Assembly (NCBI RefSeq): GCF_964204645.1
Contig: NC_134027.1
Span: 2,078,485 to 2,142,484, forward strand
Direction: 5' to 3'
DNA: 64,000 nucleotides
Source: Tubulanus polymorphus
Taxonomy: Eukaryota; Animalia; Nemertea
Shown: one piece after another, positions 12,101 through 59,304 of the stretch
Numbering within the stretch: the first letter of the stretch is position 1
How the letters are laid out: each line of letters starts with the position of its first letter
Position numbers and translations under genes: made by a program
The notes under the pieces: generated by a model
Told to the model about the DNA's origin: nothing
Seen by the model: only the letters and a program-made list of their open reading frames with translations
Databases searched by the model: none

Positions 12101-15100
12101 TAAAACTGGACATCAATTCTCATTTCATTGCGTCTACGGGCTATGCACAGAATGAAGTCGACGGATTCAAAATACATTTCCGCGTCTCAAAATGTTACCT
12201 GTGTATCCATCCTGCTTTTTTGAATAGAATGCGATGATTACTTTTTCAACAAAGAATTGAAAACTATTTGATTTCATTTTGTTGCCCGTTGGGTATTTAT
12301 CCCCTCAACGGCTTCTTACTCTTAAAGTCAGCGCAATTCCCGGGGGATTTCCCTCACCATAATACGTAACGGTTAGAAAATTCGAAAAGCGGATTGAATT
12401 GATTCACACAATTCGATACTCGCTGGCGCAGATCAGATAGAGATCGTTCGATTCGACGGGTATATTTCAATCACAGAAATTTCATATCAACACGCGGGCA
12501 ACATTTTCAGCAATAAATCAAAAATCTAAGTGCGCGCGCATATAGAAGATAAGTCGCCGAGAACGAGGTGCTATTAGGGCTAATGTAAAAAGCCCGGTCG
12601 ATAGCAGCTATAGCAAAATGGAAAATTTCATCAGATCTTATCTTCCGTAATCAACCCCAGTGGGTTATTAATCATGTGATTTCGGCACAGACATGGCGAG
12701 AACTGATGGCTCTCCGGTTCCCAAGTGATTGCATATGTCTCTGAAACGAGCAAATTGCCACCAAATATTCGCCGGAAGATTTTCTGTAAAGATAAAGCGT
12801 ATGTAGCGACGATAAATTGTAAATTTGTCGAAAGTTGCGAATGCAAGATAAATCCTCGCCCCACGGGTGTTGTATGACACTGAGCCGTCTAGTCTACACA
12901 TCTAGAGGAAGATTGTTTTCATCTTTCCTTTCGATGTAAAACCGTCAAAAATCATCGGCAAACTCTCTCTCTCCCATATTAAGAATATTTCTTTTTTTAC
13001 GAAACATTTTTATCGAGACCCAGCTAAAACGGCGCAATCGTTTGGCACGTGGGATGAAGAAACTGCGAGTGAGCGCGATTTAAGGAGGTGAGATTCGGAC
13101 TTTTTTCGTGTCTGGCGCCAGAAAAACTACTGGCTGTAAATTAGAGCTGAAATCGGGCATGGTAAAATCGACACTATCTGACGACCGCTAGGCGAAATTG
13201 ATGACATTACAGAAACTCTATCAGAAAAACACATGATTACCCCTGAACTATGCGCTATCATGAAAAACCTGTACTTGAAGATAGATCACCAAGAAAGAGG
13301 CAGGTTTGATATTAGACAGCATATTATTTTGTTATTACTGGCAGTGTCAGTGCCGAGTTTCTGTACGAGGGTCTTTTAGTAGTGTGAAATCACGCGTGAA
13401 GAGCCAACCAGTATCGCACCAACTCAATTGTTCCGTGATCTCCGGGCTCAACGAACATAGCCTTCCGCACAGACACTAAAATATTGCCCAGTGACATGTA
13501 AAAATATTGCAGATGACTATGTCACAAAGTTATCTTGTTAGTAAGATTGAGGAGCAGGGATGTTTTCATTCCATTCCGAGTGCCATTTATGGTGAGTTTT
13601 CAATGCTATCTGTGGCAATTGATTTTTGTAATGACGTTTAATTTACCATCCATCTTACTGCGGTGAAACTCGCCAGGAAGTGAGGCCCGTTCGCATAGAC
13701 ACGTTATCGGTTCAGGGTTGCACTTGACTTTTTATCGGTGAATTGAAGCGTGAAAATCACGTATCAGTGCAAGTTTTAGCTATTATCATGTGAACGTTTT
13801 ATCCAGACCACTCCAATACACAATAAACGATCAATTTCTTTCTGGTGCATGATGAGCTTCTCTCCTCGAACCCGCAGTTACTGAGTCGTGAAAAATCGTC
13901 TCAAATATCTGGACTGAAAAGGTAAATGAGTGAGGACGTTTTACCTGATGAAGGGACTATGTATACGTTTGTAGATAAAGCTCGTATTTGGCTTCAATTA
14001 AATCCAGTTAACCTTCAAAGTAGTATATGTCGTTGCGTTTACTGATGAGATTGCTGTGAGCAGGAGGTTGAGTTGTTAGAATATTGGCCCAAAAGCGAGA
14101 ATTCAAACCAAAATGATAAAACCCGCGAATCAAAGCGTTCGTCTTAGTTAAGTATTTCATCATGATTTTGATCGATGTTATTCGATTCTATTGTCATGAA
14201 TAATTCATATTGAAACTGGGAGAACTGTCAGACCACTGTCCACCGAAAACATTTGACATAATTTATAAAACATTCTCGTGGAAGCCACAGGATCAAAATT
14301 ATATTATCATTCCTCAATATGGACTATAATGTTATAAGTCAGTGAGTAATTGCCAGTCTCTTGCACGGATTGTGTATTCGAGGGGCAATTATGGTTCATA
14401 ATCTGCGTGTTATGGCAAAATGTTAGCGGGCATCATTTCTTATATGAGTCGGCCGTCACTTTCACTCAGGCGCCAATGTATCAAGAGTGAGGTAATGTAA
14501 TTTCACTAGGAATACCGACAATGGTTGAACGGCGGTTAGGAAGCGAATAATCGCGTTAGCACGCGGCAACACGCAAGTCATTAGAATTCGAATTGTATAA
14601 GTGATAACTTTTTGACGGATGATGGTTCGGTTTTTGGGCGACACGTTTATTCATCTTTGCGCCCGTAAATCGCATTATCACAGCACCTAGAAGGAGGAAA
14701 ATGCATTTGATTTTCGTGAAATTAAGTTTCTTCCACGATGAGTTTTCACAAATAAATGAAATCATAAACAGATCACCGGGATCTGCCATAACGCGTCGTC
14801 GGGTTCGATCCATTCGATGTATTATATCACTGGTCGCTAAACGATGACAAAAACTAATCCACTAGAATTTAGAACCTATTGTGCTGATATAAACGCTGCT
14901 TCTCAAAGAAAGTAATCCGTCAAAATACCAAATAAAGGTAGCCTTGAGACGGTATTTTGATGTCACCTTGAGTAAACTTAGAATTTGGAAATTCAACACG
15001 CTGAAATGATTGTGTTTTGTGGCTTTGTCGATTTCGCTTTTGCTATTGTTTACTCGAGCTGAATCGACGCGTTAAAATTGAAAATGTTATTTTTTGCCCA

Positions 15101-15644
15101 GATGGAATCGTAATTCATCAATCACTGTAAAAATATCTTACACGCATCGCGCACAAATTATCAAACATTTTCATAATCGATGCGCGATGAAAATGACCTC
15201 AGAAATGGTGAGTAATCAAGCGGAAGAGCAGCCGATATTTTATCTTCGACGGTCATCTTTCCAGATACCGTAAAACAATCGTAACGTCCGGTATTTTTAA
15301 CGCCGAATCGGAAATTAATTACTACCAAATGCCCCACGTTGAAACAATGCATAATGAGACGATCTCATCTGGTCTGTTTTTTAGAACGACAGCCCAAAAT
15401 ATTCGTGAGGGAAAATTGAAGTTGCGCGAATCTGCTTTACTCTAATTCTTTTGAATATCTCCATCATTCAAAATCGTCGTGTAGTGTTCGTTACTATCAA
15501 TGTTCACTTTTGAAAGGAACTTGTTCTTTATCAACCAATGTCATTCTCAAATTACCGCCAAGCTATTCTTTTTCTGGCAAAATCTGAAAACAGCGACTGA
15601 CAACGGATCGTAAGTAGGTTTTTATTCTCTCACTTACTTTTTTT

Positions 15645-15677
15645 TTCTCGTCAGGATAATGTGTTTCAGTTTCTAGT
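15645..15677 (+). repeat. Second partial copy of the same 3'UTR block
   Basis: ttctcgtcaggataatgtgtttcagtttctagt matches 16014-16046 with one mismatch. Confidence 0.7.
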
Positions 15678-15904
15678 CATTTCGAATGTTGCGTAAAACC
15701 ATCGACTTTATGTTACGATGAACTGTTAAAATGATTTTACTGAAGTTTGGACTGTGTAAGTTCCGCGTAAACACTACATATTTCAATATCGAACATATAT
15801 TAAAATTGACAATAGTCTTGTTCCCTACTTGAGAGTTAATTTTCAGTTAATAAAAAATACGCATATCCGGTATGAATATAGACTGTTAAAGTATGAAGTC
15901 ATTG

Positions 15905-16120
15905 TTAACTATGGATTTTATATAAAATTTCTTTTGTTTTATTTCTAGATGGACGGAAAAGATGACGCTGATCGGATCGCATTAATGAAATCAAACTCTC
16001 AATTAATCTTTCCTTCTCATCAGGATAATGTGTTTCAGTTTCTAGTTTTAAATAATCTAAAGCATTAAATGACGGTGTCTCTGTTATACACGACTGGTTT
16101 GATGTGAAGGAAGAGCCATC
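15905..16120 (+). pseudogene. Orphan copy of the last intron end and 3'UTR exon of the secreted-protein family
   Basis: Aligns by eye to 22203-22420 (ctatggattt...ttttgttttatttctag|atggac...gtgtttcagtttctagtt...aagcatt...tctctgtt-tacacgactg...ggaaga-ccatcg). Acceptor AG ends at 15948. No intact coding exon seen upstream. Confidence 0.75.
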
Positions 16121-18274
16121 GGCAAGAATATTTCTTATTGGTTAATTTCGGTTCTTATTGCAATTTATCAGCTGGGTGAAATGTAGATCTTCCTTCAATT
16201 CAAGGAATTGGTGCGAACATCACGAAAATATACTTGACAGAAAATGTAGTAATTGAATTGTAAAACAATTCAGCAGAAGAGAAAAACTTATGAATATCGT
16301 AGTGATAATGGCATCGAAACGATATCGATAGCCACATTGATATCAGGCGTAATCTAAACACCGAATAAAACCCGTTCTCGTGGAAACTAAAAGAGATATA
16401 TAGAATAATAGACTATCGTTTTTCTCACCTTTACACGTCACAGCTGATCCTTAACATTGACTCGTTTTTGTTAACATTCGTGATTTACTTCAGGATTTTT
16501 CTATATACAAAAACCGTAATATTAAGCTTCATTTGACGCCTTTAGCATCGAGCCTAATTGGCTCGTGTACACTTGGTTTAACCGAATCAATGTTGTATTC
16601 TTCTAGGATTCTTTGCCCTAAAAAACAATATTGGTGCGCAGATGGGGCGTCGAGGTCCATTTCTACCCGATTTCACCCAATTTCAAGCTCGGGGAGCGCG
16701 CTGTAGTAATTTATGGTGAGGATTGCCTGGTGTTTGTTTATAACGGCGTTCGCACGCGCCCGGTCACATGTTCCCCTAATCTTCGCGACGAAGTTGACAA
16801 ATTTCGCAACTTTTCGACGGGTCTTTGTCGGCTGTGACTTGGCAGGTGTCACGTTCGCTTGGCTTACCTCGCTGATAAAATCAAATGCAAATTATGCGAC
16901 TTCTGACAGCTGAATTTAGATTCTGTTTAAATGGAATTATTATTGCGATGAACGGAACGTCGCTCGTGATTCGTAGGTCAAAAGGGGACATTTTACTTTC
17001 ATCTAATTACATTGTGATATTGCATCAGATGGAGTTCTGAGATAAGAAACTTCTGACTTTAAATCCGGGTCAAAATGTCCCGGTATTGTCTTAAGAATTA
17101 AAAGGATTAAGGTTTTAGTCTTGGTCTTATGGTCGCGGTTGTCATTTCACCACGTCACAAGATATTGATGTTGTATCGCTTTTCTGCCAAACGATCTTTC
17201 ATTTCCCGCCCATACAGCTAATCTCCAAAACCGATTTTATGATTTTCTATTTTTTGTACACTTATTTCTCATTGTGGTAAATATTTAATACAAATGAAAC
17301 CTTTGGAGCAGTAGAACATGGCCGAAGACTAATTGAATTGAAAAGATACATACGATGATTAAGAAAACTGAGTTCTACTTTAACAAAAACAAATACATAC
17401 TCGCGCGTTAATGTAATTGGTTTATAAACCAAAACGTGTTTTTCGTCGTGATCCGGTCATTTTTTCACCTGAAACTATCAGTTAAAAACAAATCAATCTC
17501 CTTTTAAAACCTCGCGATCACGAACTGTAACGCTTTGCGGTCTGCGGATGCTGCTAAGCGCTTTGTTCACGGCCGTACGGTCAATGTTTAGTGGATTACC
17601 AAGATTTGCTAACTGTAATCATCCCGAGTGGGTTGACTTTATGCGACTAATGCCAGCGATGATTTGACACAACCTGTCGTTTTGCTTCGAGTTAATCGAG
17701 TTACTATCGCTGTTGCTACCGGAAAACACGCGTATAATGAATTCAATATCGCCGATTCGAGGATGTGGCTTATTATGTAACCGGTTTCGTTTTCAATTTT
17801 CGGATGAGACGTTACTGGTTTCACGTGGCTTCTGCGACGGAATTCGTTACTTAATACCGATAAAGAGATTTGATTCACCAGAGGGATGACAGCACTCCCC
17901 GATTTAACAGACTTGCCACAGAGCAATCTAGTTGCTGCCATAAGATAAGATACCTTTATTCATCGCGACAAGGATGTAGACAAACATGCTAATAATACAT
18001 TATGTAAAAAATAAGGGATTTACAGGACATTTCAACATATCTATTCATCAATGATTTCGGGTCCTTCGTATTCAATAACTCGTAATATTTTAGCTCATCA
18101 GTAAGCCTGATGATGGCCAGTGTTTAACCGACACATTGCTCGAAATATATACCAAATATATGCCATGCTTTTTATTTTTTGGCTGAATTTATAGTGGGAC
18201 TTCTCTCGTTACTTAACATGCTTAATGAATTATTTTTACAGGTAACCACCGCGCGTAACTTTATCTGAATGCCT

Positions 18275-18410
18275 TACCGTGAGGTGCTGCCACTATGCTC
18301 ATAATTAGCGGAATTCTCGTACACTACTATGAACCACCCCTGGCAATTAGCTTCGTGTTAGTGTATAAAAAAGCCGCTAATGATTTGCATAGCGGCAGCA
18401 CCTAACGGTA
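18275..18410. mobile_element. Small MITE, TA-flanked (Tc1/mariner-like)
   Basis: 24-bp inverted termini taccgtgaggtgctgccactatgc / gcatagcggcagcacctaacggta with 2 mismatches, TA at both ends. Confidence 0.65.
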
Positions 18411-19167
18411 GAAGGATCGTGGTGGTTGAAGCTTGATCGTCAATAGAGGCTTCGTCTGATTCAACCCCACGTGCAGCATACCCGGTTGATTCTAACTCGA
18501 ATAAGTTAGGACTTGGACCTGAATTAAAACTTTTATTTTATTACAAAGGTTACATAGGAAATGACACAGGAGACCGGTAGACAAGACAAACAATCATGAA
18601 CGTACAGTATTGGTATAGATAGACAACAATTTAAAAAAGAGACTAGTTAGTAGAATCAGTGACATCTGCGGATAATAGAATGTTATTGCAATAGTTCTAA
18701 GATTGAGTGCCCTGGTGAATGTGAGAACTAGAGACTTGAAATGATTCTGATTATGATGAATCCACTGTGTATGATGACAAAAACGCGAACAATTTGTAGT
18801 GAACAAACTGAGCATACGAGTGATGCTGATGTTAAATGGGTTATGAAGACTTTGGGAAAAAGAATTTTAAATAAAATTTGTTTTGTATAAAACGTTTACC
18901 ATATGTGTCTGTAATAGTTAAGTAAAAAAAAATTAGCAACGGGACGCTCGCGGTTGCGCGCTGATGACTTGTGGTCGGTAGTTCAATACGTATTTATGAG
19001 TAAAGCCCAAGCCGCGCACCTTGACAACCCACGACGAATTGTGTAGGTAGTTGCACCCTCGATCACTACGTCCCTGGTTCAAGTCTTCGGTAAAATTATT
19101 TTCTAGGCTAAAAAATTAATTATCCGGCTGGGTTTTGAAATATTTCCTTTGATGCGATTCCAGCCTA

Positions 19168-19672
19168 CCAGAAGAAAGACATGGATTCCTACGAAAAAGT
19201 CCAAAGACGAGCAACAAAGTTAGTCCCCACTCTAAAAGACTCATAATATCAACAACAGATGATGCAACACAAACTACCATCGCTGAGTTACACACGTTCA
19301 CGTGGTGGCATGATCGCCGTGTACAACTGCCTACACGGGAACTACCGTATCAACTCTGAGAGACTAATACCACAGAACCACTATCGTAGAACTAGGGTCC
19401 ACTCACTGAAACTGGCAAAATCCCGATCAAGGAAAAACATCCGGAAGAACTTTTTCAGTCAACGCGTAAATAACTGGAATAGCCTAACAGAAGATATAGT
19501 TAATGCACCCAGCATTGACAGTTTCAAAGCGCGACTCGATAACTACCGGCAACACAAACTTACGAACAACGTCCACAGCTGGTTTCATACCTAGCAATAA
19601 TCAACAAGAGACAACCTAGAAATAGGCATATAATGCCTCCCGTTGGTTGTAACCGATGCGATACGATACGAT
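19168..19672 (+). mobile_element. 5'-truncated CR1/L2-group LINE relic (ORF2 C-terminus, 3'UTR and simple-repeat tail)
   Basis: Translation KDMDSYEKVQRRATKLVP...(stop)...RTRVHSLKLAKSRSRKNIRKNFFSQRVNNWNSLTEDIVNAPSIDSFKARLD is typical of CR1-type ORF2 ends. Terminates in gatacgatacgat. Confidence 0.85.
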
Positions 19673-20722
19673 GTAATTTTGCTGGGAAGTTGGCCGTTGG
19701 TTCTTAGTTTTGCCCATACATAGGAATGTATCATCATTGAAATACGTAATAGTGTCACGTGTTCCCGTTTTATAAATTCCTTTAATTGAAAAAAAAGAAA
19801 TTAAAATTTCCATTTTGTCAGGAGTGTGCGAATGTGTTCGATAGATCAGAATAAACACTACACATTTTGATATCGAACCTGAATTGAATCGACAATAGTC
19901 CAACTCGAGATCTAATGTCACCAGAGCGATCAGTTGAACTAACACAGGAAACACATATATATATTCAACCGATCCAGTTATTTAAAGGTACATAAGAATT
20001 GATGTTACAGATCGAAAAAATATCCCTTCGATTTAAAGAATCATGTAAACTCGAACGCCTAAACTAGCTATCAGTACTTCAAATACTGATTCCAAAATCA
20101 AACCCCTCCGCTTCGTTCCCAGTAGGCGTGATGGGTTTGTAAGGGATACCGAATCAAGTCAGATCATATCTAACTACCAAATAAAACGGTGATCCGATAA
20201 AATGTACCCACCCGTGAAGCAGAACAATCAACTTAAATTCGTTCATAACACCCGTCCTTGGGGTTCTTTGCTAGTATTATATAATTCTATGTTATGTTAT
20301 TTATTGTCGAAAATATGAAGCAATATATGTGTTATTTTTCAGGGTCGTCAATAAACTTTCAAGTAAGTTTTCTTGTTTTATGTTGGCCGCAGCACTTTTC
20401 CAATTCTTCCTAATCGACCGGGATTCGAACCTGATTTATACATCAGTTTCAATATAATTCAATAATCATTATATATCAATTGCTGTAATTTTCGCCCCGT
20501 TGTTTCCCTAAAACCCTTTTTTTATTACTACATGTACTTTTCTCATTTTCTCGGCGCCTGAAAAATGCCATCCGAAAATTCCAACAAAATAATTAAATTC
20601 AAGTATATACTTTAGAAAAAGTACCATAAAAGTACTCTTAAAATGTGCCATTGCAAAAACCGAATTCAATGAATCTAATTAATGTTTACTATTCACTTTA
20701 CTATTCAATTTTCACTACTCGT

Positions 20723-20846
20723 GATGAACAAATAAAGTTTTGTATATAAGAATCGGTTTTGGAAGTCTTTCTGTGGCGGTTTTTCTAACTGTGGAGTTTG
20801 ACAGACGTCTTCATCATCAGATCACACAAGGAGGATACAACTGAAG
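20723..20846 (+). promoter_or_regulatory. Promoter (TATATAA 20743-20749) and non-coding exon 1 of secreted gene A
   Basis: GATGAACAAATA followed by TATA box; donor gaag|gtaagt at 20847; intron ends ttcag at 20943. Paralogous to 25843-25947. Confidence 0.7.
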
Positions 20847-20953
20847 GTAAGTTTAACAATAGATATTAGTCCACTGTAAATTTCATCTCATGTTCACATT
20901 GATGGCGTTGGTTTTTGAAGTTCAAATCGAATGTTCATTTCAGTAATCGCATC

Positions 20954-22150
20954 ATGAGAGGTTTCACATTTTCCCTGCTGTTCCTGGCTTCCTTTGTAGC
21001 AGTAATAGAGAGTAGGCCTCAGCAGATGGTTTATTACGAGGCAGAAGGGTTAGGGGTAGACACAGGCTTTACAGGCGAGACAGGTTTCGGCGGGACAGGT
21101 TATGGTGCGACAGGTTACGGTAACACAGGTCTCGTCAGCGGTGCTGGCACAGCGATCATTGATACTTCTGGAACAGGAACAGGTTACTCCAATAGTAACA
21201 TACAATCAACATCTGGAAATAGCTACAGTTCTGGAACAGGAACAGGTTACTCCAATAGTAACATACAATCAACATCTGGAAATGGCTACAGTTCTGGAAC
21301 AGGAACAGGTTACTCCAATAGTAACATACAATCAACATCTGGAAATGGCTACAGTTCTGGAACAGGAACAGGTTACTCCAATAGTAACATACAATCAACA
21401 TCTGGAAATAGCTACAGTTCTGGAACAGGAACATCTTCAAGTGGAACAGCCGGAACATTTCAATATGGAGCAGATGGAGGTTTCTACAATTCTGCACAAA
21501 ATCTTTACTGGTACGTTGATGCTACAACAGGATCATTTTACTACTTGACCAATACAGTGCCAGCTGGAAGTTACTACGATACCGCCGCACGACTGTATTA
21601 TTACTACGATACCGCTACTGGAAAATATTACACCTACAACTCTACATATCAAGTGTTCTACTATTTAGACGGTACAGTTAACTACAATGCTGGCTCACCA
21701 ATACGTTCATCCGGCTCTAGTTCCTCCAGTTCAAATTCTGGAACAGGAACAAGTTACTCCAATAGTAACATACAATCAACATCTGGAAATAGCTACAGTT
21801 CTGGAACAGGAACATCTTCAAGTGGAACAGCCGGAACATTTCAATATGGAGCAGATGGAGGTTTCTACAATTCTGCACAAAATCTTTACTGGTACGTTGA
21901 TGCTAATACAGGATCATTTTACTACTTGACCAATACAGTGCCAGCTGGAAGTTACTACGATACCGCCGCACAACTGTATTATTACTACGATACCGCTACT
22001 GGAAAATATTACACCTACAACTCTACATATCAAGTGTTCTACTATTTAGACGGTACAGTTAACTACAATGCTGGCTCACCATTACGTTCCGACTCCGGTT
22101 CCTCCAGTTCCAATTCTCAAGTTCAAACAACAAATTACGGTTGCGGTTAA
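20954..22150 (+). CDS. Secreted Tyr/Gly/Ser/Thr-rich repetitive protein (gene A), single coding exon, 398 aa
   Basis: ATG at 20954 just after a splice acceptor; signal peptide MRGFTFSLLFLASFVAVIES. Contains four 21-aa repeats and a duplicated Tyr-rich module; ends YGCG. A 3'UTR intron spans 22164-22246. Confidence 0.85.
   Translation: MRGFTFSLLFLASFVAVIESRPQQMVYYEAEGLGVDTGFTGETGFGGTGYGATGYGNTGLVSGAGTAIIDTSGTGTGYSNSNIQSTSGNSYSSGTGTGYSNSNIQSTSGNGYSSGTGTGYSNSNIQSTSGNGYSSGTGTGYSNSNIQSTSGNSYSSGTGTSSSGTAGTFQYGADGGFYNSAQNLYWYVDATTGSFYYLTNTVPAGSYYDTAARLYYYYDTATGKYYTYNSTYQVFYYLDGTVNYNAGSPIRSSGSSSSSSNSGTGTSYSNSNIQSTSGNSYSSGTGTSSSGTAGTFQYGADGGFYNSAQNLYWYVDANTGSFYYLTNTVPAGSYYDTAAQLYYYYDTATGKYYTYNSTYQVFYYLDGTVNYNAGSPLRSDSGSSSSNSQVQTTNYGCG
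21167..21430 (+). repeat. 63-bp coding tandem repeat, four copies plus a partial
   Basis: Units start at 21167, 21230, 21293, 21356 and (partial) 21419; they encode SGTGTGYSNSNIQSTSGN[SG]YS. Confidence 0.95.
21356..22090 (+). repeat. Internal duplication with 381-bp offset (two near-identical Tyr-rich modules)
   Basis: 21356-~21710 matches 21737-~22090 with only a few substitutions. Confidence 0.95.
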
Positions 22151-22859
22151 ACAAGAGCACCAGGTAAACTATAACAGATTTAATATATGCTGACTATGTC
22201 CGCTATGGATTTCATATTAAACTACTATGTTTTGTTTTATTTCTAGATGGACAGAGAACAGACGCTGACCGGACCGTATTTATGATATCAATTTCTCAAT
22301 TAATCTCTACTTTTCTCATCTGGATATCGTGTTTCAGTTTCTAGTTGTTAAATAATATCAAGCATTCAATGATGTGGTCTCTGTTTTACACGACTGTGTT
22401 GACGTGATGGAAGAACCATCGAATGTAACTTTAACAACGCAAATTTTGGTCCTATTAGTGATGAATGGCCCGCGTCAGAAAATCCTACTGAAATCACGAA
22501 TAGACGTTCCATTGTGAAATACCAAAACCGAAGCTTAATTTGAACACATTATATTGACATGACAACGAGACAAACAATACCAATACGAATACAAATACCA
22601 ATACGAATATTTATTACACTTCAACCATTTCCATGGTATATGGAGGAAAAAACAGAATTTAGAATTATTTACAAAAACAGGAAATAAAAGTATTTTAAAA
22701 GATAAAAAACAACGATCAACACATTACGACACAGACAAACTGTCTCAGCTCAGAGGACGAAGTAATAACAAATATGTAAAGGAATATTAAATTACAATAT
22801 ACAATATAACACGAACAAAGAGCTCAGTAGCAGAATTAATAGATGCTCTCAAAAACGGT

Positions 22860-23225
22860 ATTTCCGCCGCTGGTTCAAACCGTGATATACCGAGACAACC
22901 TGGAAATAGGCATAAAAATGCCTCACGATTCGATACCATACCATACGATACCATACCATACGATACCATACCATACGATACCATACCATACGATACCATA
23001 CCATACGATACCATACCATACGATACCATACCATACGATACCATACGATACCATACCATACCATACCCATACGATACGATACCATACGATACGATACGAT
23101 ACGATACCATACGATACCATACGATACGATACCATACCATACGATACCATACCACACCATACAATACCATACCGTACCGTACCATACAATACCATACCGT
23201 ACCGTACCATACCATACCATACGAT
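22860..23225 (+). repeat. (ATACC/ATACG)n pentanucleotide microsatellite attached to a LINE 3' end
   Basis: Array spans ~22931-23225. It is preceded by gagacaacctggaaataggcataaaaatgcctc, nearly identical to the LINE 3'UTR at 19608-19640. Confidence 0.85.
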
Positions 23226-24222
23226 GAAATATTTCGCAATATTTTGGTGCGAGCAAAATGCAGGGAACCACACAGGAAGAAATTATGAGTTTCTTGGTCA
23301 TAATTTCATCGAGCCAAAAATACTGTAGCCACTTGAAATCATGGATTACTAAATGAGACAACACCAAAAAAGAACATCATCTACAATAACTTGACTTCGG
23401 AGGAATCCCGCAGAAAAAAAACATTGATAAAGCGAATAACATTTCCCGACATTAAGGACCGCTTTTTCCTAGTTGCCCAAAACTAATATTTTATATCATT
23501 GAAGTTTTTGAACTACACAACCGTGTAATCTTCAAATGTATACATAATGGTATATAAGCGACCTGCTGGGATATACTGTAGTACTGTCGAGAAGCTCTGA
23601 CTGGTCGTAAAATTCGATTGAAATTGGGAAACCAAAGTTGACACGTTTAGACACGTTTATCAAAATGACCACATGACTTAGCATGTATATTTATCTATTT
23701 CATGGAGTGGAGGTGACAAACTGGTTGAAACAAGTTATCACTGAGATTTAGAGTTCGATAGTGATGATATTTAGCAATGCATGATTAATTCGTCTACTAG
23801 AAAATTCACATCGCGTCCTTTTGCCCAATTCAGCAGCCAAATAAATCTTCCGTACCAATATACACGATCGAGCGGTATCGCGCTATGAGAAATTATGTCG
23901 GTTGAAAAAGGTCGAGAATATTCAAGTTCAAGTTGGAATTTATCTCACGAAAAGCATGACAGGCTGTATTGCGATTGAGATAAAAATAACAAACGATACA
24001 ATTTACAATTTCTAAATACAATTAAGAAAAAGAGAGCGAGAGAAAAAGTAGCTTTCTGTACGGGGTAAGCGAAGACTTAAGGATGCTGTCGCAAGCACCC
24101 AGTTCAAATTCAACACGTGACAGATGAATTCAGCATTTACTGGACACTTCCGGCCTCGTAATCATACAGCCATTCCTTTTCCACAAACGCCAAACCACTG
24201 TGAAAAAGGCGTGGCGTGTTAA

Positions 24223-24808
24223 GGCCCTCGCATACGAGCTGAAAACTTAAAGGCCCCGGCACAAGAGCGCATTTAGCGCAGAATATATAAGGCCCCCGAC
24301 ATGAACCGAAAAATGCGCTCAGCAAAAGGAAGCTGCGGCAAGCACGTATGCATTATACAACCATATTTACTGCATATCTGCACCATTTACTCGCGACTTT
24401 AATTGTCCTTGTCAAATCTATTTGAATATAAAGGGATTTTTCTCTTCTTATTACATCTTCATCGGCATTAAAAGTCTTGCAAGGGGAAACTTGTGATTTT
24501 GATAATTTAAGTAATCCCATATCATTAAGAAAGTGATATTCGTGTCATAAATCAGTGTGTTTCTAATCTGAAATCAATACGCTAGCCACTATTATCAGTT
24601 TTTGAGTAATGACGCATGCGCATTAACGACGAATGAAACGCAAATGACGCTGAGTTACCCGCACACAAGAGCGCAGTTGGCGCTGCGTCAAAAAATATCA
24701 AACATGATAGATATTTGGCTAACGACAAAATGCGCTCGAAAAGGCCCCCGCACAGGAGCCAGCGCTGCGCCATTTGCGTACGCAGTTTTCAGCTCGTGTG
24801 CGGGGGCC
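24223..24808. mobile_element. Non-autonomous DNA transposon with TTAA TSD and GG...CC termini (Kolobok-like)
   Basis: TTAA|ggccctcgcatacgagctgaaaact ... agttttcagctcgtgtgcgggggcc|TTAA, a ~25-bp TIR with 2 mismatches. Internal aaggcccc-gcac subterminal repeats. Confidence 0.75.
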
Positions 24809-25842
24809 TTAAAGTTGCCGCCTTTAATTTACTTCAATTTCGTCAAAAGCATATATTTAAAGGGAAAAAACGTCATTCGGTAAATTATCCGCTCCCGCAG
24901 AGAATCCTGGTTACGCCCCTGATGTCGTATCATAGTTACCTATAGACGATACCACTTTCGTGGATAAAAATGGTGGGTGTCAGTACTTAGGAACAATATA
25001 TAACAAAACGCACTGAAACGGAATTAATTTCGCTGAGTAAGATCAAACAATCGGGCGAGAAGCGAATAGGGTTTCCAATTATAGATAATTATATTAGACA
25101 GTTATTTGCCACGAGTTAACACTAATACAAGCCCTTTATTTACACAATTAACGCATTGAATCTACACCAAATATATTTACTTTCCGCGAATATCAAAAGC
25201 TGGAAAATAAATCCACCCACGATGCATTACCGGTTTTGTCAAATTATCTTTTGGTACCTTGCTAAACCCGGATAAGATAGATATAATATATTATTATCGT
25301 TATTATTATTATTACTAATGATAAAAATGATAACAAAAATATCTGTTTTATATGGATAAAAAAAACACGTGTAAAAAAGAACACATATAACATTAGTCGG
25401 TCACTTGAGTTGCAATGTTCAAGGTGAACAGAAAGAAGACATGTGACAGAATAAATTAAAGAATGTCATTGAAACGAAAGATGTACGATATAAGACTAAA
25501 TGAAATTATCATTCTTATCAGGTCCTACAACTGGTACGCCAGACACGTAAATGAATTAATTCAAGCTGAGGCTCACGCCTTCCTTCATTCTATTCCCATA
25601 TCTCTTCGCGGTCTTAGATCTTTGGGTTCGGATTTTTCGATAGAATCAGCTCTGGGGATTCTTCATGATGGCACGTAGGCCTACAGTAGGTATGAGTTCA
25701 ACCCAGACAAAAAATATCGCAATAAAAAGGTTCATGTATTAGAACCTAAATTCAATTATGTTTTATTGATTATGAACATTATTGCTAAAACGAATTGGAT
25801 AAATTTAATTGCTATTTGCTTTACAATTGTCATTTTTATAAA

Positions 25843-25947
25843 GATGAACAAATATAGTTTAGTATATAAACTTCGATTTCGATAGTCAATTCTGTAGTTT
25901 TTCAGGCGTGTTCATCATCAGCTCACATTTGGACGATACAATTGTAC
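25843..25947 (+). promoter_or_regulatory. Promoter (TATATAAA 25863-25870) and non-coding exon 1 of secreted gene B
   Basis: Same layout as gene A; donor tac|gtaagt at 25948; intron ends ttcag at 26055. Confidence 0.7.
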
Positions 25948-26061
25948 GTAAGTTTGAGACGGCTTAAAGATTGATTACATGATTTCATTTTAGGGCCTTT
26001 ATTTTTTGGGCATGGCGTAAGATTATTGAATGGGTAGTATTTTTCCCCATTTCAGTAAAAC

Positions 26062-26721
26062 ATGAAAGGTTTCACGTTTACCCTGCTGTTCCTGGCAATG
26101 ACGTTGTTTGTCGTGGTAGTAGAGAGTTTGTCTGTCGCCAAAAGGCTTTCGCCTCCAACCAACCCTGCACCTGCACCGGCAGGTCCCTCAATTTTACCAG
26201 TTAACGCCACCAAATCCAACTCAACCGGTAACTCTGATGACTCCGAATCAAGTAGTTCCAGCTCGGAATCATCCAGCTCCGAATCAAGTGAATCCAGCTC
26301 CGGATCAAGTGAATCCAGCTCCGAATCAAGTGAATCCAGCTCCGAGGAATCCAGCTCCAGTAGCTCAAGCTCAAGCTCAAGTTCTGAAGAAGACGTATCT
26401 GCTGTATCTGTTTCATCGTCTGAAGAAGATTTGGCGATTGCTATGATCCCCGTAGAGTTAGGTAGCTCAAGTAGTTCCAGTAGTTCGGAGAGCTCAGAAA
26501 GTTCGGAGAGCTCAGAAAGTAGTTCACAGAGCTCAGAGAGTAGTTCGGAGAGCTCAGAGAGTAGTTCGGAGAGCTCAGAGAGTAGTTCGGAGAGCTCAGA
26601 GAGTAGTTCGGAGAGCTCAGAAAGCGAATCATCGTCATCATCGAGCAGTTCCGAGGAAGAGTCCGGTGGCAGCGGCGCTTCAAACAGCACAGTACCTGCT
26701 GTTTCAGCAGCGGTCGCTTAA
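26062..26721 (+). CDS. Secreted acidic poly-Ser/Glu protein (gene B), single coding exon, 219 aa
   Basis: Signal peptide MKGFTFTLLFLAMTLFVVVVES, a Pro-rich linker, and two Ser/Glu tracts built from 21-bp repeats with many S-x-E motifs. 3'UTR intron 26765-26913; AATAAA at 27039. Confidence 0.85.
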   Translation: MKGFTFTLLFLAMTLFVVVVESLSVAKRLSPPTNPAPAPAGPSILPVNATKSNSTGNSDDSESSSSSSESSSSESSESSSGSSESSSESSESSSEESSSSSSSSSSSSEEDVSAVSVSSSEEDLAIAMIPVELGSSSSSSSSESSESSESSESSSQSSESSSESSESSSESSESSSESSESSSESSESESSSSSSSSEEESGGSGASNSTVPAVSAAVA

Positions 26722-26760
26722 AGCAGGGAAGTGTGATCATCACACTTCCCTGCTTAAAGC
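26717..26760. repeat. Perfect palindrome/hairpin directly at the gene B stop codon
   Basis: aagcagggaagtgtgat-c-atcacacttccctgctt, with 17-bp arms at 26721-26737 and 26739-26755. Confidence 0.95.
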
Positions 26761-28401
26761 AAAGGTAATCTCTCACATTTCGTTTAATAGACCTTTTACT
26801 TACTTTATGGATTAGAGAAGTGCAGATGGAAAAAATATCAAAATGTCAATTTCAATGAAAACGAAGTCACCTTTAACAGGGAATTACATTCATTACTGAT
26901 TCTATATTTTTAGAGTGGATACAGAAGCATTCAAGGGTATTACGACGAACACGGAACGTAACTTACCATCAAGCCCAAAACGGACAGAATGAAATAACAA
27001 ATCTCTCTTTAGAATATTATGTGTTTCATATTCTGTTCAATAAACAATCGAAGCATTAATTTTGTATTTGCTGTTTGTACGTGCTGGTTGGTGTTTTCAG
27101 TTCTGCCGTGAATTTACTCATTGAGCAGCAATCTTCGAATCCAAACCATTTATAAGAACAATGGCGTCTTTTGAGTTTTTATGATGGGCAAGCGTGAGAC
27201 ATGTGCGGAGAATAATACTACAGCAACCGTAATCAAATTCATGGATTGCTGCGCATTTCGTGGTACGGTCTGACAGTCGTTTCTTTATCCACAAAACGAA
27301 AACTAACGAGACCTAAAAACGCCTTTTTTAAAACCAGACATCACTGTAATATTTATTCAATAAATATATCAATTTCAGAAAAAGAATGTTAAATGTATAC
27401 TATAATATACTTACATTATAAAATATGGAGGAAAGTTTGAACGATGTAGTAGTGATCATTAGAAAATGAATTTGAGTAAAAGGAAGCTAACTATTAGATC
27501 TTTTAATTCACAGTTTATGACATAAATAGCTTAACATGAAATAGTGAGATGTTATATGGCTGGTAAATCAATTTGCAATTTTACAATCGATTTGAAATTT
27601 GGACGGCAATTCATATAAGGAATCAATCGTTGCACCAAACATTTGCTTGTGAAAGCGCAACAGTGCGCTTCTATTCCGAGATTCTCCAGGACAAAGGCAA
27701 TTAACATCCCCTATACCCTAAAACCTCATTCACTTTAAACAAATCCATCCTACCCCGCATGGAATTGAACTGCTGAACATCAACCTGGTAAAAAAGATCG
27801 TTACTGGTTCCATTAGTATAAAGTGTGTTACCAATTCGAGGGTTCAGAGTTGAGAAGGCAGAACCAGTATGATGATAATCATATTTGAGGAGTTTTTGAA
27901 GAAAATACCAAACAATTCGAAGAGGTTTCCATTGGTGATATTAAACATTTGCCAAATTCAAAGTCTGTGTCTATGAGTACTTTAGACTGTGAGCCATTGT
28001 CATATACAAGAAGAAAATACGTACATATTTTGAAATGTTTAAGACTTTAAAAATTTAAAGAGTTTCAGAGTAATTTCTCAAAATTCGAGATCGAGATCGA
28101 ATTCAAGGTCCTTCCTTTCTTCAGTTGAGTTGAAGTTATCAACGAATCGAGGAATATCTAGAAGTAAGAACCTTGAATTCATCAGAAAAACACACTATCA
28201 CTGAAATAGATTTTAACCCACGTGATCAATAAAATATATTAGCTCAAATTTCCCACTTTCAACCGCTTGAACAAAGAAAGACTTCATTTGATTTGAGTTC
28301 GAATTGTCAACAGTGACAATTGTTGTGTAGATTCAATGCTCCAAACTGAACAGTATTTCACAATGAAGACGTTTCAGTAAACATTAAAAAAATGGTCTAG
28401 T

Positions 28402-30892
<2,491 letters not shown>

Positions 30893-32739
30893 TTACACAT
30901 CCGACGATCAGAGCTGAAATGAAGTACAAATTTTTTTAGTTGCCTTCTTAAAGGTAAGGTCTATAGTAGCCTAGGATACTGACTGGAGGACAAAATATTT
31001 TGTAGCAGGCACCTGTGTTGTTGTGAACCTTCAACTAAATAGGCCTATGCGTGGGTGGCTATCAGTCATTAAGTTAATGTTTTAATCCCCCACCACAGTA
31101 GTCTAATACCTAGCCGTCATTCTACAAACAACGTTGTAGGAAACCCGTTACAACGACTGATATTCAGACTACCACCGCAGGGACTTGTAGTACTGTAATA
31201 ATTCTGTGTTTTATGTTTTCTCTTTTACATTAATTATGTTAATATCTCTTTCTAAATCAATTGCCCCATTAAGTAATGTTTTAATCTCTAAGTCTCGCGT
31301 TGTTGTCCTGCTCTATATAACTGTCGATCAGATAATGATTATATTAGTTTCAAATCAAGGACCAATAATTTTTAATAAAAAGTTATTTTGAATTCTGGGT
31401 GTATGCACGTTGTCAGTAGTAGTGTATATAATGTAAAAAGGATCATCTGACAATGACTGTTTGTTGTTGTTAGGCTAATCTAACAATACGAGACTGGATT
31501 AACCAGGTTATCGTTTTTACACTACCAACTAACTCTGATAAAAAGCTGCAGTGATTGAGTGACGTCTTCACCATAGATCCTCTGGACTTCGAGGAAGTAA
31601 GAACGCGAAACTATTTTGACAAATCTGTTTACCACGCGCTGTATCGATTATGCCAATGTGTGACATGGGTTCGAATCCTAGAAAACCTCAGAAGAACTGG
31701 GATCGGGCTTTCCACGGGACCACGGCGCCTCTGTTAGACGAAGAGTCAATGTGATTCTCCAAAACGAATAAAATTGAATACTTAAATTTCTGATATTCAT
31801 GCTTATATTTATTGCAAATATTTCAAAGCACTATCTTAATACACTAATCCAGCGCATAGCACTACAGAATAGACACTAAACAGTGTAGTGTAAGTCTAGG
31901 AAAGGGAACAACTGACAATATCAACTAAGGTCAGCTTCGTGTGTTCTTAGCATATTCAAACATACAACTCTTTAAATACAATTGCTGTAAAACTCATCTA
32001 TTTATAACATGAATTGGCAAATTATTTCACAAAGCCCAGAACCTGCTGAGTCGAACTCTATACATATTTACAACATTACAGTAAATAATGTCTACCAAGT
32101 GATAATGCGGGATTATTATATTTCAAACAGTGCAACGTAGTTGAACCCGTACATTTATCATATTAAATGCACTCATTGTCCTTGCATGAAGTAGAACTAA
32201 TTTCGGAACCACAAAAGTTCAGAAAACCCTTAACGCGACAAAAACATGGTGGAATTAACCCAGTAAAATTATTTTGCTATTTGTGATCTGTATACTAGTA
32301 TAAATGGTTCTAACTGTAAATAAGCAGTTTATTTTTACAAACTTCGTGGATAAATTGCCGTACTTTCCTTGCTTAAGTTCAATATTAAATTCAATATTAA
32401 ATCTTGAATATTATATAATTATTTTGTTGAAATTATCAAGAATTACAAATTCTCTCAGTCTAACGCCGTCTCAACTTCAAGGTGTAACGAGGTGAAAACG
32501 AGAACCCTTACAAACAGCTTCCAAGAAAATCACAAAAGCATCATCTCTACATATTATCAGCCACAGAATATTTCGTCATTCTATCTAAATATTAGCCTAG
32601 TTAAACGCGAAGAGAACAGTACAATAGATATATTTACTCCGATATATTTTAATTCAGCAATATTCCATAAACTGTAGGCTACCAGACCAGGCAGTGTGAG
32701 GCTTTCAGATCTTTATGCGGATAGCAAAGGCAATTTTAA

Positions 32740-32957
32740 GGCTAAAAAAAATTGATACCTTGTTTCTCCGCTCTGCTGAGCTTAAATGTTGACCCGGCCG
32801 GCCGCCTATCTACCCTATACATTACTTTTTTTTAAATCGTGATCAATTTTACCATAACAGACCGCCGCTATATAAATGAATTGTTTATAAATTTTATCAT
32901 ATTTTACAAAAATGACCCGGCCGCCGCGGAGAAACAAGGTATCATTTTTATTTAGCC
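32740..32957. mobile_element. PIF/Harbinger-like MITE
   Basis: TAA|ggctaaaaaaaattgataccttgtttctccgc ... gcggagaaacaaggtatcatttttatttagcc|TAA. Confidence 0.8.
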
Positions 32958-33094
32958 TAAAGTGAGAAATGTTAAACCCTGTTTCTAACACATAGATATG
33001 TAATGCTGAGTTTGCATATTCTTAATATGAAATAGTCGGGACAATACTGTAAAACGATATACAAGAAATGACTGCGAGATTGTTTCCGTTTTGT

Positions 33095-34915
33095 CTAACA
33101 TTCTTCTAGAGATGCTTGCAAAGCAGCTTCCAACATTGCGTCATCATCTTGAGAATAGTCCTGAAAATAATACATGATTATTGTAGTAGAAAAGCCTACT
33201 TCAGGCAAAAAAATTTGTTTCCTTGTTTCTCCTTTCGTCTGAGCTTGACCCGAAGTTGACCCGGCCTTCAGGCAAAAAAATGTGTTTCCTTGTTTCTCCT
33301 TTCGTCTGAGCTTGACCCGAAGTTGACCCGGCCAGCCACCTATCTACCCTGTACATTATTTTCATTAAAATCATGAATCGAGCTTACCATAACACACCCG
33401 GCAGCTATAAAAATGCACTGATTACAAATTTTATTGTGGGTTACATAATGATCCGGCCGATTAGGAGAAACAAGGTATCATTTCTTAGCCTTACCTTGAT
33501 TTTACGTTTATTACTGTATATAAAATGTATTTTACACAGATTTTTGCATCAATCTCGAAAATATGAAGCTAACCAGCCTGTTTATACTGTTTATACTTAC
33601 AACATATGTGTCGTACTCAAACCGATGTCGCAGATTTAAATGATTGATGAAATTCGAACTTTTTTGTGAAGGGTTTCCCCAAGGCATTGAGGCACAGATC
33701 GGACACACCTAGCAATACAGACAGTGATATTTAAAAAAGATTATAGGAACAATGGTCATACAGTCGAATTCACTTGCATTACTTAACTAAGTAAGTTGAC
33801 CGAATACCAAACCAAACCATAAATTAAGTGAGTAAGGCATTGACTGCAAAGGTTTTTAAATGTACTTACAACATGGGCCAAACTATGTTTATGAGTGTGA
33901 TTACAATGTTTTACTAAATCTGTAGTTGTAAGATGGTTCACACCGCAGTATGGACATTGGAATGTACATCTATTTGGAATAACGCTGAAATATAGAATAA
34001 TGAAATTCAACGTTGTAACAAAATGATGTAAATTCATGACTATACTTTTTAAAAAGATTTCAACAGCACCTTGGTAGCTTTTGAGAAGTCTTCGCAATTG
34101 GTTCAAACTTTTTGTGTCCCTGAGGTAAAGCTTTACAGTGATTGCCGTGAGAACGCAGTTTAGACAAACTCATCTGAACGAACAATATGAAATATAGCGT
34201 ATCATTATACATTCGGAAATAAGTAATATCGAAATTCGTTCAATCGTCATAATAGAATTCTACCTTTTTCGAACATCCTTTACATATGACTTTATTAGAC
34301 GATAACACTTTGTCGACATCGATGGCTTTTTTCTTTTTCTTTGGATCGAAGACAGTTCGACAAAGAGGGCATTGTGGTTCTGATAAATTAGTGTAGGCAG
34401 ACACACAATTTCCGCAGAATCTGAATTTTAGATTATCTCTATAATATATTTATTATGAATAACAGTTTGCTTCAGAGATCAAATATTCGATTGCATCAAA
34501 CATCTGGCATACATCCAAGATGATTAAAGAATTATGAAATATTATCTCTTTAACTCAGAAACATTTCAGTTACATATATATAGATATACACATGTATATG
34601 ATTCAATTGTCACATCGTATAAATGGTATCATTCATAATAACTGAATCTAACTCTATTACATGTATGCTATATAAGACAGCTGTTGCAGTACATGGTATA
34701 AACAATAACAAAGAAGTCAGCTGATCAAAACAAACCAGGAAAAAGCTCACATCTAGAGCTTAAAAATACAATTAAGAGAAAATTTCTACTTACATATGTC
34801 CACACGCTATAGTGAAAGGTTTCTGATAAACCTCTAAACAAATAGCACAGATGACATTGTCCAAATCGTCTAGATTTTTACTTGGCTTTGCTAATTGAGC
34901 CATTGAGGAAGCCAT
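33095..34915 (-). CDS. RNF166: RING-zinc finger-UIM E3 ligase, RNF166/RNF114 family
   Basis: Exons 34794-34915, 34264-34420, 34070-34173, 33870-33984, 33601-33708, 33095-33160. [23 protein letters not shown]; [11 protein letters not shown]; [11 protein letters not shown]; C-terminal [16 protein letters not shown]. Confidence 0.88.
33204..33490. mobile_element. Second copy of the 32740 MITE family, in the last RNF166 intron, with its left ~68 bp tandemly duplicated
   Basis: Shares ccttgtttctcc, gttgacccggcc, cctatctaccct and ggagaaacaaggtatcat blocks. 33200-33267 is repeated at 33268-33333. Confidence 0.8.
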
Positions 34916-35315
34916 TTTTCATAATAATATTGGAGCAAATCCAATGAGCTAGTTCAGTGATTGGCTAATGATGGCACCACTTCCTAGTAGATTCAGACAC
35001 ATTCATAGACAGCGTTCAAACTAATCGATCAATAACACTGATGATTATAATACAAAAACATATATTGTTACTACAATGATCACTTAATGAAAAACGTTGT
35101 TGTGCAATTGCAATTAAAAATAATTCATAACCAATTTGATCAATTTCATATAAAAGTTTATCATGTACATATTTTTACATCAAATTGTAAGACAATAATT
35201 TCAATTTTTTTCAAAAAAGTTAAGTCCATTATTGCTAAAGTTTTTTTCTTCTAGTTTTAGTTAATCCGATTGTAGTTTTCTGCGAGTGCGTCTTGAAACA
35301 GTTCGCGGAGGTATT

Positions 35316-39134: not shown

Positions 39135-39539
39135 AAAAAACGGGCTCTAATCCAATCCCTGTAATAATACAACGTTTTACGCGGAGAAAATCTGATAAGT
39201 GATCCAATTAGCATTTGAATGATGCGCGCATTCGGTGAATGTTACCCGCGGCTGCAGAGACTGTGATAGAAGAGGAAAGTGAGTTCGAATCCACTTTTTA
39301 TCTTATGTTAACAGTCCTTCATAACAACATTTTATGGATACAATAATTTTGTGAATTATCCTCTTATCGGTTAAAGAGAATCTAGGTATGAGTTTTAATA
39401 GCATTTAATGGGTGTGAACATTATTAGAATGTTGAAACAATCTCTTGGTTCCACAATCCTCCATGCGGTGGCAGCACCTTACTGATCACCGAGTTTTGTT
39501 TGTTTTATGCATTTTCTAAATTTCTAAGTCCTCCTTATG

Positions 39540-40386
39540 TAGTTAGTTACCTAATCGTTGGTGGTAAGCTTTTTATAATCGGATGGGCTTATACCAACGT
39601 TAGGGATGACAAGGACCAAAACACGGTTGAAAAAAGTAACACTTCAAAAATATACTTTATATTCACTTCAGTCCAAAATTAATGGCTTAATTCACAATCT
39701 AACACAGGTACCTTTCGAAATAATCCAATTTCATGTATGTTTCGAGTGGTTAATCAACATTATTTTGAGAAATTAATTAATTTCTCCACCAATTTCGCCA
39801 TTGGCCGCCATTTCTCTGTATTGCACATGTGGCATGATAAGACAAGGGGACCTACAAGGATTTATATAAAACTTTCAAGGCGAAACGACAATTTTTATTT
39901 TTGATGGTTTTCCAACTTATATTTCAAATCTTCAGGTTTTCCATATTAAATTATGAAACAATAAATTCTGGTAAAAGAAAAATGTGAATAAGTGTTGATT
40001 TCTTAATTTTTTTCAATTTCGTCGTTTCGCTTCGTTAGTTTGTGCTGTTGTCCTGGCCTCAGTCCACAGGTGCCACCACCTCCAGTAATTTTCAAAATGG
40101 CAGCTGTTGACCCGACGGAAATTTACTCTCACTTTACGGCCGATTTGCACATGGATTAAGATCGTCAGGTGAGGTGTTATAGGTATCAGACAAACTACGA
40201 ATCTGTTGTGCGTCGATTACAACAAAAATTAGACGGATATCTTAAGAGACAATGAAATGCCAGGCAAATTACTCGTCAGTCAAATTGGCTGACGAAGATT
40301 TCATACAAAAATGACCTTCCCATTCCTGACTGTGGTTTGTGAAAATATCCGATTGTGAAACTAAACCACAGACAGGTTACTGACTA
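39540..40386. mobile_element. 847-bp non-autonomous DNA transposon, copy 1 (TAG...CTA termini, 9-bp TSD; AcademH-like, MULE not excluded)
   Basis: ctccttatg|tagttagttacct ... aggttactgacta|ctccttatg; near-identical to 42627-43463. Confidence 0.9.
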
Positions 40387-47675: not shown

Positions 47676-47786
47676 TAGTTAGTTACCTACCAATCGTTGG
47701 TGGAAAGCTTTTTATAAGGCTTATACCATATGTGGTTTGTGAAAATATCCGATCGTGAAACTAAACCACAGACAGGTTACTGACTA
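47676..47786. mobile_element. 111-bp internally deleted copy 3 of the TAG...CTA element
   Basis: Retains both termini (tagttagttacct...; tgtggtttgtgaaaatatccg...aggttactgacta). No TSD recognisable. Confidence 0.85.
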
Positions 47787-48130
47787 GTACCGACCCAGCC
47801 AGGTGGCAGTGCCAGTGGACCACTACGCTGGGTGGGTGGTGCGTGTGATGCTGTTGCATTTTATATAACTCACCCGGCAGTACTGCATGACAAACCGGTT
47901 CAAGTCACTGCTGTTGGCTGCTTCCTTCCACTTCCAGGGTGTGGGTAATACTTAAATAACAAAGGCCACCCCACCGTGATGTTTAAATGAAAAATCCAAT
48001 GCCAGGGTTACAAAAGTGTTAGGAAACCAAGATCCAATAGATACAATGCGAAGCAAGATTAAGTGCCTTGAGCCACAAGCAACATGCTTTAATTCCAATT
48101 TGTTTCTTTCAAAAGTGATATTTGTCAGAT

Positions 48131-52657: not shown

Positions 52658-52699
52658 GACCAGGTAACACTATATTCATTAGGCTGGTGAAAAATTTGA

Positions 52700-55897: not shown

Positions 55898-59304
<3,407 letters not shown>

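Follow-up and report, generated by a model that had tools for sequence, protein, structure and literature searches.

Two neighbouring genes of the nemertean Tubulanus polymorphus share a secretion frame and differ in their low-complexity cargo: tentative candidates for tube-wall proteins

We analyzed a stretch of 64,000 nucleotides from the palaeonemertean Tubulanus polymorphus (NCBI RefSeq assembly GCF_964204645.1, contig NC_134027.1, positions 2,078,485 to 2,142,484 of the forward strand), which is called the window in the following and to which all coordinates refer. On its plus strand, it carries two neighbouring genes, A and B, each of which encodes a protein with a predicted N-terminal signal peptide and a low-complexity mature part. 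An earlier note on this DNA had suggested that the two genes form a duplicated family, in which a conserved frame (upstream block with TATA element, non-coding exon 1, acceptor 6–10 nt before the ATG, signal peptide, single coding exon, intron just past the stop codon, similar 3'-untranslated region [3'UTR] blocks) surrounds chemically contrasting and likely secreted cargo without recognisable homology. Our data bear out each of these structural points, and A and B are very probably homologous genes for secreted low-complexity proteins. The exon/intron boundaries given below were predicted from consensus motifs and homology.

The promoter-like block of gene A (20723..20750) consists of a 12-mer followed by TATATAA at 20743 and involves a match to the heptamer RYAAAYA at 20728, which we take to be a Forkhead-type consensus. 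The inferred non-coding exon 1 (20773..20846), the start of which was set from the TATA spacing, is followed by a donor GT at 20847 and by an inferred intron 1 of 97 nt (20847..20943, GTAAG...TTTCAG). Three upstream ATGs lie inside this intron and would be removed if the predicted splicing occurs. The predicted acceptor ends 10 nt before the ATG of the coding sequence (CDS, 20954..22150), which encodes 398 amino acids in one open frame. The predicted signal peptide (20954..21013) comprises 20 residues with cleavage after Ser20 as judged by eye, and the hydropathy of the protein peaks there at 3.0 and reaches a maximum of only 1.63 beyond residue 30. According to Tandem Repeats Finder (TRF), the remaining CDS involves a 63-nt repeat in 4.3 copies (21166..21433, 99% matches), which encodes a Ser/Gly/Thr/Asn linker, and a 381-nt module in two copies (21355..22117, 96%), each of which contributes one Tyr-rich domain of 85 amino acids with 19 Tyr (~21446–21700 and ~21827–22081). 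Past the stop codon, we placed a 3'UTR intron of 83 nt (22164..22246, GTAAA...TTCTAG), whose sites recur in a gene remnant described below (remnant Z), and a last non-coding exon (22247..22420), which is homologous to B and Z and whose 3' end is not defined.

Gene B is built in the same way. Its promoter-like block (25843..25870) carries the RYAAAYA match at 25848 and TATATAA at 25863; the inferred exon 1 (25893..25947, start likewise inferred) ends at a donor at 25948, and the inferred intron 1 of 108 nt (25948..26055, GTAAG...TTTCAG) ends 6 nt before the ATG. The CDS (26062..26721) encodes 219 amino acids in one open frame, starts with a predicted signal peptide of 22 residues (26062..26127) and contains two stretches of 21-nt repeats (26271–26345 and 26479–26621, TRF). 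A near-palindrome of 33 nt (26722..26754) is flanked by a TAA duplication, the first TAA of which is the stop codon of B. This element is likely a collapsed miniature inverted-repeat transposable element (MITE), and related copies occur at high depth in X1, one of two public sequencing runs (X1, X2) of unknown kind from a single study; X1 may be the source of the window itself. An inferred 3'UTR intron of 149 nt (26765..26913, GTAAT...TTTTAG) and an inferred last exon (26914..27065) with AATAAA at 27039 complete the gene. Nonsense-mediated decay follows a distance rule for introns downstream of the stop codon. Both predicted 3' introns start less than 50 nt after the stop (13 nt in A, 43 nt in B) and thus decay would be avoided. 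The reading frames of both genes are uninterrupted, and the alternative plus-strand frames carry 10 and 22 stops in A and 7 and 19 stops in B.

For the nucleotide alignment of A with B, which the earlier note had called for, we compared local alignment scores with those of 300 dinucleotide shuffles and used real tiles of the window as second control. Each of the upstream, signal and 3' blocks was found to be significantly similar. The 12-mer GATGAACAAATA at 20723 and 25843 accounts for the only exact matches among 17 sites with at most two mismatches, and its distance to TATATAA is 20 nt in both genes. The 28-nt promoter-like blocks share 25 of 28 nucleotides, and the 3' portion of exon 1, including the donor, shares 47 of 59; together these regions scored 116 (null maximum 40; 0/300 shuffles). 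The signal CDS is identical at 50 of 60 nucleotides plus a 6-nt indel, and acceptor and signal together scored 86 (null maximum 27; 0/300). When promoter/exon 1 of A was compared with 1266 real tiles of the window and its acceptor/signal region with 2121, high scores were obtained only for the tiles over B. The 3' exon is the weakest block: its score of 49 exceeded the null maximum of 36 (0/300), and the margin over the best unrelated tile of the window (44) was thin. A tile at 62351–62570 (−) scored 62 against the 3' exon of A, but this alignment was gappy and AT-rich and was discarded.

Between these blocks, the similarity drops to chance level. Intron 1 scored 22 (21/300 shuffles), its core being unalignable between the two genes, and the last introns did not differ from shuffled sequence (371/500). 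A control region further upstream (score 39; 15/300) and the mature coding DNA (score 31; 11/100) did not stand out either. At the protein level, the signal peptides scored 66 (0/500) and the mature regions 89, a value that was reached by 131 of 500 shuffles. A marginal match of 27 nt just before the stop codons (score 24; 1/500 codon shuffles, one of five sub-region tests) is a hint only. Among the first 12 codons of the signal, eight are identical, two differ synonymously and two by replacement. Taken together, the conservation of the signal start in nucleotides beside unalignable introns suggests either selection or local gene conversion.

The two cargoes differ strongly in composition. Residues 20–398 of protein A consist of 18% Ser, 17% Gly, 14% Tyr and 14% Thr, and 38 of its 53 Tyr are located in the two 85-residue domains. 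With two Lys (0.5%), protein A is not Lys-rich, as the earlier note had stated. The mature part of protein B contains 52% Ser and 16% Glu (47% and 15% for the whole protein) and involves three N-glycosylation sequons. S-x-E motifs occur 27 times in B and are absent from A, and on motif count only, 88 of the 103 Ser of B are reachable through S-x-E/pS priming. Both proteins are acidic (K+R/D+E of 7/17 in A and 4/36 in B), neither contains His, and Cys is restricted to a single residue in A. Each protein has a single hydrophobic stretch, which is N-terminal, and the chains are mostly disordered.

How could homologous genes acquire cargo that does not align? Exon shuffling was ruled out as source, since signal and cargo are encoded in one exon without an intron between them. 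Tandem arrays span 89% of the mature CDS of A and 50% of that of B (TRF). As the signal and a cargo that is mostly tandem repeat share a single exon, the unrelated cargo is better accounted for by an expansion of repeats than by a swap of exons, and independent expansion in the two genes is likely the simplest cause of the difference. For run X2, three differences in the first module of A were considered as a variant; they have the same letters as module 2 and likely reflect repeat collapse.

The family seems to extend beyond A and B. Remnant Z (15855..16125, +) consists of an A-like last intron (15870–15948) and a 3'UTR exon and shares 215 identities over 271 nt with A (22148–22425). We detected no promoter, signal or open reading frame (ORF) upstream of it (in the whole window, the 5' model has no matches other than A and B, and no ORF is present in the 1.4 kb upstream). 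Judged by its sequence, Z is what is left of a third gene of the A type, an orphaned 3' end. A transposon as source of the match between A and Z was rejected, as Z lies on a contig of depth 29.9 in X1. A second, more decayed fragment of the 3'UTR exon was found at 15586..15677 (+; 73% over 94 nt, E 5e-9). At the 5' end of B, seven X1 contigs were recovered, which include two B flanks, one matching the A contig in length and depth, and two nodes of 31 and 41 nt at about double depth. The remaining two (691 nt, depth 35.6; 834 nt, depth 34.9) match the start-codon region of B (26061–26091) over 30 nt and then diverge into in-frame, differing hydrophobic signal tails (hand translation of the 60 nt seen of each). 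These sequences probably represent two more paralogues, with divergent alleles as the alternative. The contigs of the two runs cover introns as well as intergenic DNA, and none of the predicted introns appeared as a joint among the 15 of 21 contig joints that were listed, a result that is uninformative on expression.

Database searches did not connect the two proteins to any described family. For whole protein A, none of 7990 scored candidates (lengths 218–697 only) reached E ≤ 0.01, and an N-terminal profile of A and B retrieved none of 482 candidates at E ≤ 10. Whole protein B was put to Pfam and ESM Atlas only and gave no Pfam domain and no usable ESM Atlas match; the latter also holds true for residues 160–255 of A. 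A PDB sequence search returned one match with an E-value of 3.1, JGI metagenomes contained no match to the signal pattern, and Rfam had none in 15000–28500. Searching titles and the beginnings of abstracts, we found no paper on nemertean tube proteins or on the A/B family in a library that is without most subscription journals and older histology; supplements of nemertean proteome papers, which could list related proteins, lay outside this search. The family has apparently not been described before.

The OCRE domain, a nuclear splicing module, shares a pattern of Tyr runs and beta-hairpins with the Tyr-rich domains of A. Pfam OCRE (PF17780, known from RBM5/RBM10) scored 16.2 and 13.6 bits in A (E 0.011 and 0.072), which is below the gathering cut-off of 24.7 bits, and OCRE membership was rejected on these sub-threshold scores. 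A Foldseek search with a single-sequence model of one Tyr-rich domain gave no match at E ≤ 0.001, with RBM10 OCRE at rank 9 (E 1.3), and the resemblance is likely compositional convergence.

What might such a pair of proteins be used for? We tentatively favor the reading that A and B are paralogues encoding gland-secreted structural proteins of the worm's tube wall, to which we assign a chance somewhat below even. T. polymorphus itself presumably builds a tube. In the available parts of the sources, two congeners are reported to secrete tubes, and Tubulanus tubes are described as films and not as cemented grains; the available text of PMC6410017, PMC3681988 and PMC13565374 contains no tube information. 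Among the uses proposed in the earlier note (adhesive, tube, cocoon or mineral matrix), a tube has thus become more plausible by the habits of these congeners, and for a palaeonemertean, a mineral matrix is an improbable one. Phosphoserine plus tyrosine is a known recipe (sabellariid cement, and Ca–phosphoserine in caddisfly silk), and for this reason the tube wall was put first. Statements from papers cited by PMC number refer to the part of each text that was available. FAM20C, whose targets are S-x-E/pS and polyserine, is expressed by the cement cells of Sabellaria (PMC12621633), and caddisfly silk is stabilized by Ca/phosphoserine networks (PMC9999432).

For such a tube wall, the following sequence of events may be envisaged. 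The Forkhead-like and TATA-containing promoter common to A and B would drive both genes in the same epidermal gland cells, and the signal peptide would route the products into secretory granules. A FAM20C-type Golgi kinase could phosphorylate B (27 S-x-E motifs, up to 88 primed Ser) and convert it to a dense polyanion, which might gel with Ca and Mg of the seawater. The two Tyr-rich, predicted beta-hairpin domains of A would stack on their flexible Ser/Gly/Thr/Asn linkers, and cross-linking of A by a tyrosinase or peroxidase would yield a tough film. Since neither protein is cationic, setting would have to depend on divalent ions together with tyrosine chemistry, in the manner of caddisfly silk, unless a cationic family member is encoded elsewhere. 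In its most far-reaching form, the scheme would imply that the underwater tube material of tubulanids evolved independently of annelids, from one cassette with shared gland promoter and signal. Its coding exon would have been remodelled to give two polymers that complement each other, a polyanion of phosphoserine and glutamate and an acidic scaffold with Tyr-rich beta-hairpins, which would set through divalent ions and tyrosine cross-links and without a polycation. We consider this extension doubtful.

A number of observations weigh against the tube wall. In an exact look-up in a collection of 15 billion proteins, A, B and three alternative-start forms were absent, whereas the RefSeq protein of a neighbouring gene was present, so that the two proteins are without annotation support. 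In all, exact matches were obtained neither for the two full proteins nor for any of five other forms, one of which was an exon of a neighbouring gene. Gene A has no canonical AATAAA, the closest motif being AAATAA at 22350. The Forkhead-type heptamer is frequent, with 180 matches over the 64 kb, and the homology of the promoter blocks already accounts for its position being shared; it is therefore no independent sign of co-regulation. The structural model mentioned above, which shows short beta-hairpins, is of low confidence (pLDDT 53), and the window does not encode a cationic partner. The link to a tube is one of natural history and composition. The tube statements come from two congeners only, and according to the available part of the source, Pacific records under this species name are now assigned to T. 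ruber.

The closest functional parallel is sabellariid cement (Phragmatopoma Pc-1/2/3, Sabellaria Sa-1/2/3), in which a marine tube-building worm also secretes low-complexity Gly/Tyr-rich proteins beside polyserine proteins of ~220 amino acids (PMC12621633, PMC9999432). FAM20C is the kinase proposed there (PMC12621633), and B, with 103 Ser and 27 S-x-E, fits the polyserine/FAM20C-motif pattern on motif grounds only. The differences are considerable. Lys makes up 13% of Sa-1 and 8.5% of Sa-2, both of which are basic (pI 9.9 and 9.7), whereas A is acidic with 0.5% Lys, and Sa-3A/B contain 65–67% Ser and ~1% Glu compared with 47% and 15% in B (PMC12621633). By eye, the signal peptides of Sa-1/2 and Sa-3 differ in the available sequences, whereas A and B share theirs, and the worms belong to different phyla. 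No homology to the Pc/Sa proteins was seen in the search with A or with the A/B N-terminal profile (whole B was compared with Pfam and ESM Atlas only). The Phragmatopoma cement model of the earlier note received no support in the form given: it needs a Lys/His polycation, and both of our proteins are acidic and free of His. A and B are probably not homologues of the sandcastle cement proteins, and sabellariid membership fails on the polycationic Lys/His partner.

Caddisfly silk also involves dityrosine cross-links. H-fibroin resembles our system in forming an underwater casing bonded by Ca–phosphoserine, but it is a single fibroin of more than 300 kDa that carries (pSer-X)4 motifs and blocks rich in Arg, whereas A and B are two small proteins, with Ser/Glu runs in B and without cationic blocks (PMC9999432). 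In its way of working, the A/B system is likely similar to sabellariid cement or caddisfly silk. In gene architecture, the vertebrate SCPP cluster comes close: it consists of tandem duplicates with a non-coding first exon (AMTN), S-x-E motifs, a signal in exon 2, and acidic and non-acidic branches from one ancestor (PMC4373244). It differs in being vertebrate and SPARC-L1-derived, with the mature protein spread over later exons, whereas in the nemertean genes signal and cargo share one exon (PMC4373244). A conserved signal with variable mature part is common in secretory families. Conotoxin precursors combine a conserved signal with a hypervariable mature region, and they and frog skin-peptide precursors share with A and B the nucleotide-level conservation of the signal; their products are short and usually Cys-rich or cationic peptides, in contrast to the low-complexity cargo of 200–380 amino acids with 0–1 Cys in A and B.

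The strongest competitor of the tube wall, although unlikely, is that the same chemistry hardens a secretory granule, so that A and B would form the cortex or core of the pseudocnidae (rhabdoids) of the proboscis, or that they contribute to sticky epidermal or proboscis mucus. The shared frame is compatible with any single gland type. Nematocyst minicollagens are Cys-rich and carry collagen-like motifs, and nothing comparable is present in A or B. Moreover, pseudocnidae are widespread among nemerteans, but our searches turned up no homologue even though Lineus proteins are in the collection; for fast-evolving proteins, this is a weak argument. Pseudocnidae are layered secretion granules with uncharacterized structural compounds (PMC7897414).

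Next in rank, and again unlikely, is the view that A and B share the secretion cassette by descent only and have separate jobs or act in separate cells, one gene perhaps being weakly expressed or decaying and the pairing a coincidence of repeat expansions. Signs of birth and death (the orphan remnant Z, the likely MITE on the stop codon of B, the absent annotated protein) fit this view; repeat expansion suffices to erase homology, and conserved signals and UTRs with variable cargo are common, for instance in SCPPs. However, both ORFs are intact, and the retention of promoter (25/28), exon 1 (47/59) and 3' exon against introns at chance level argues that selection, or conversion, still acts on regulation common to both genes.

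Known reproductive products include tanned eggshell proteins rich in Gly and Tyr as well as phosphoproteins rich in Ser. A role in an egg coat, an egg string or a spawning jelly, or as phosvitin-like ion store in the case of B, would agree with the Gly/Tyr content of A and the polyserine of B, and stage-limited expression would also account for the absent annotated protein. The silkmoth chorion genes reportedly form a clustered eggshell family with gene conversion. Neither A nor B contains a vitellogenin or other Pfam domain, and we regard a reproductive role as improbable. Peptide toxins are typically disulfide-rich, and we know of no mineral stylet in palaeonemerteans. We give very little credence to a conotoxin-like venom or defence family with variable toxins or to a pair of biomineral matrix proteins, although nemerteans are venomous (PMC6410017), the nucleotide sequence of the signal is conserved (see the first 12 codons) and the composition of B resembles acidic mineral phosphoproteins, since the cargo is long, low-complexity and Cys-poor and has no Pfam or PDB match.

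If the far-reaching form of the tube-wall reading is true, A and B would be the first proteins to be identified as structural components of a nemertean tube. In either case, they are testable candidates for the palaeonemertean tube or the pseudocnidae, the protein make-up of which was not found in the literature searched. Confirmation would extend to a further phylum the phosphoserine-plus-tyrosine recipe on which sandcastle worms and caddisflies have converged, and would do so with two peculiarities: both chemistries would come from a single duplicated cassette, and no polycation has been seen so far. The locus also is a compact case in which regulatory and signal sequence outlasts the coding region within a single exon, a pattern that is already known in general.

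The surroundings of the two genes are rich in repeats. Between A and B, a pentamer satellite (ATACC, 58 copies, 22933–23222) yields spurious Tyr-rich ORFs on both strands, and an element of ~600 nt (24219–24812) with 29-nt terminal inverted repeats bounded by TTAA occurs at high depth in X1 and is likely a MITE. Upstream of A, an imperfect palindrome of 136 nt (18275–18410), which is at high depth in X1 and X2, is likely a small transposon, and an ORF of 111 amino acids (19259–19594) without Pfam match is, by eye, presumably the tail of a reverse-transcriptase ORF of a long interspersed nuclear element (LINE).

Downstream of B, an SLC66A2-like PQ-loop gene and a gene with a RING and a Di19-type zinc finger, which we take to be RNF114/166-like, occupy 28400–34916 (−). 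The first coding exon of the PQ-loop gene (30668–30892, −) is 100% identical over 75 amino acids to two T. polymorphus RefSeq SLC66A2-like proteins, including XP_074645468.1 (153 bits; next 87; 58 matches). An orphan-looking gene (35824–37960, −) with an acidic exon of 283 amino acids has no significant Pfam match. A direct repeat of 848 nt (39539–40386 and 42626–43463, 96%), both ends of which also match near 47676–47786, is likely a dispersed element. Further downstream, a NOL9-like gene (48119–54600, +; Cupin_NOL9, E 5e-13) has a long N-terminal exon that is made up of 27-nt repeats (Lys/Ser/Pro), and a multi-exon gene (55900–59300, +) encodes an acidic, mucin-like protein rich in Thr, Asp, Ala and Gly, the large exon of which has no Pfam match and which likely carries a single transmembrane helix near 58630–58715.

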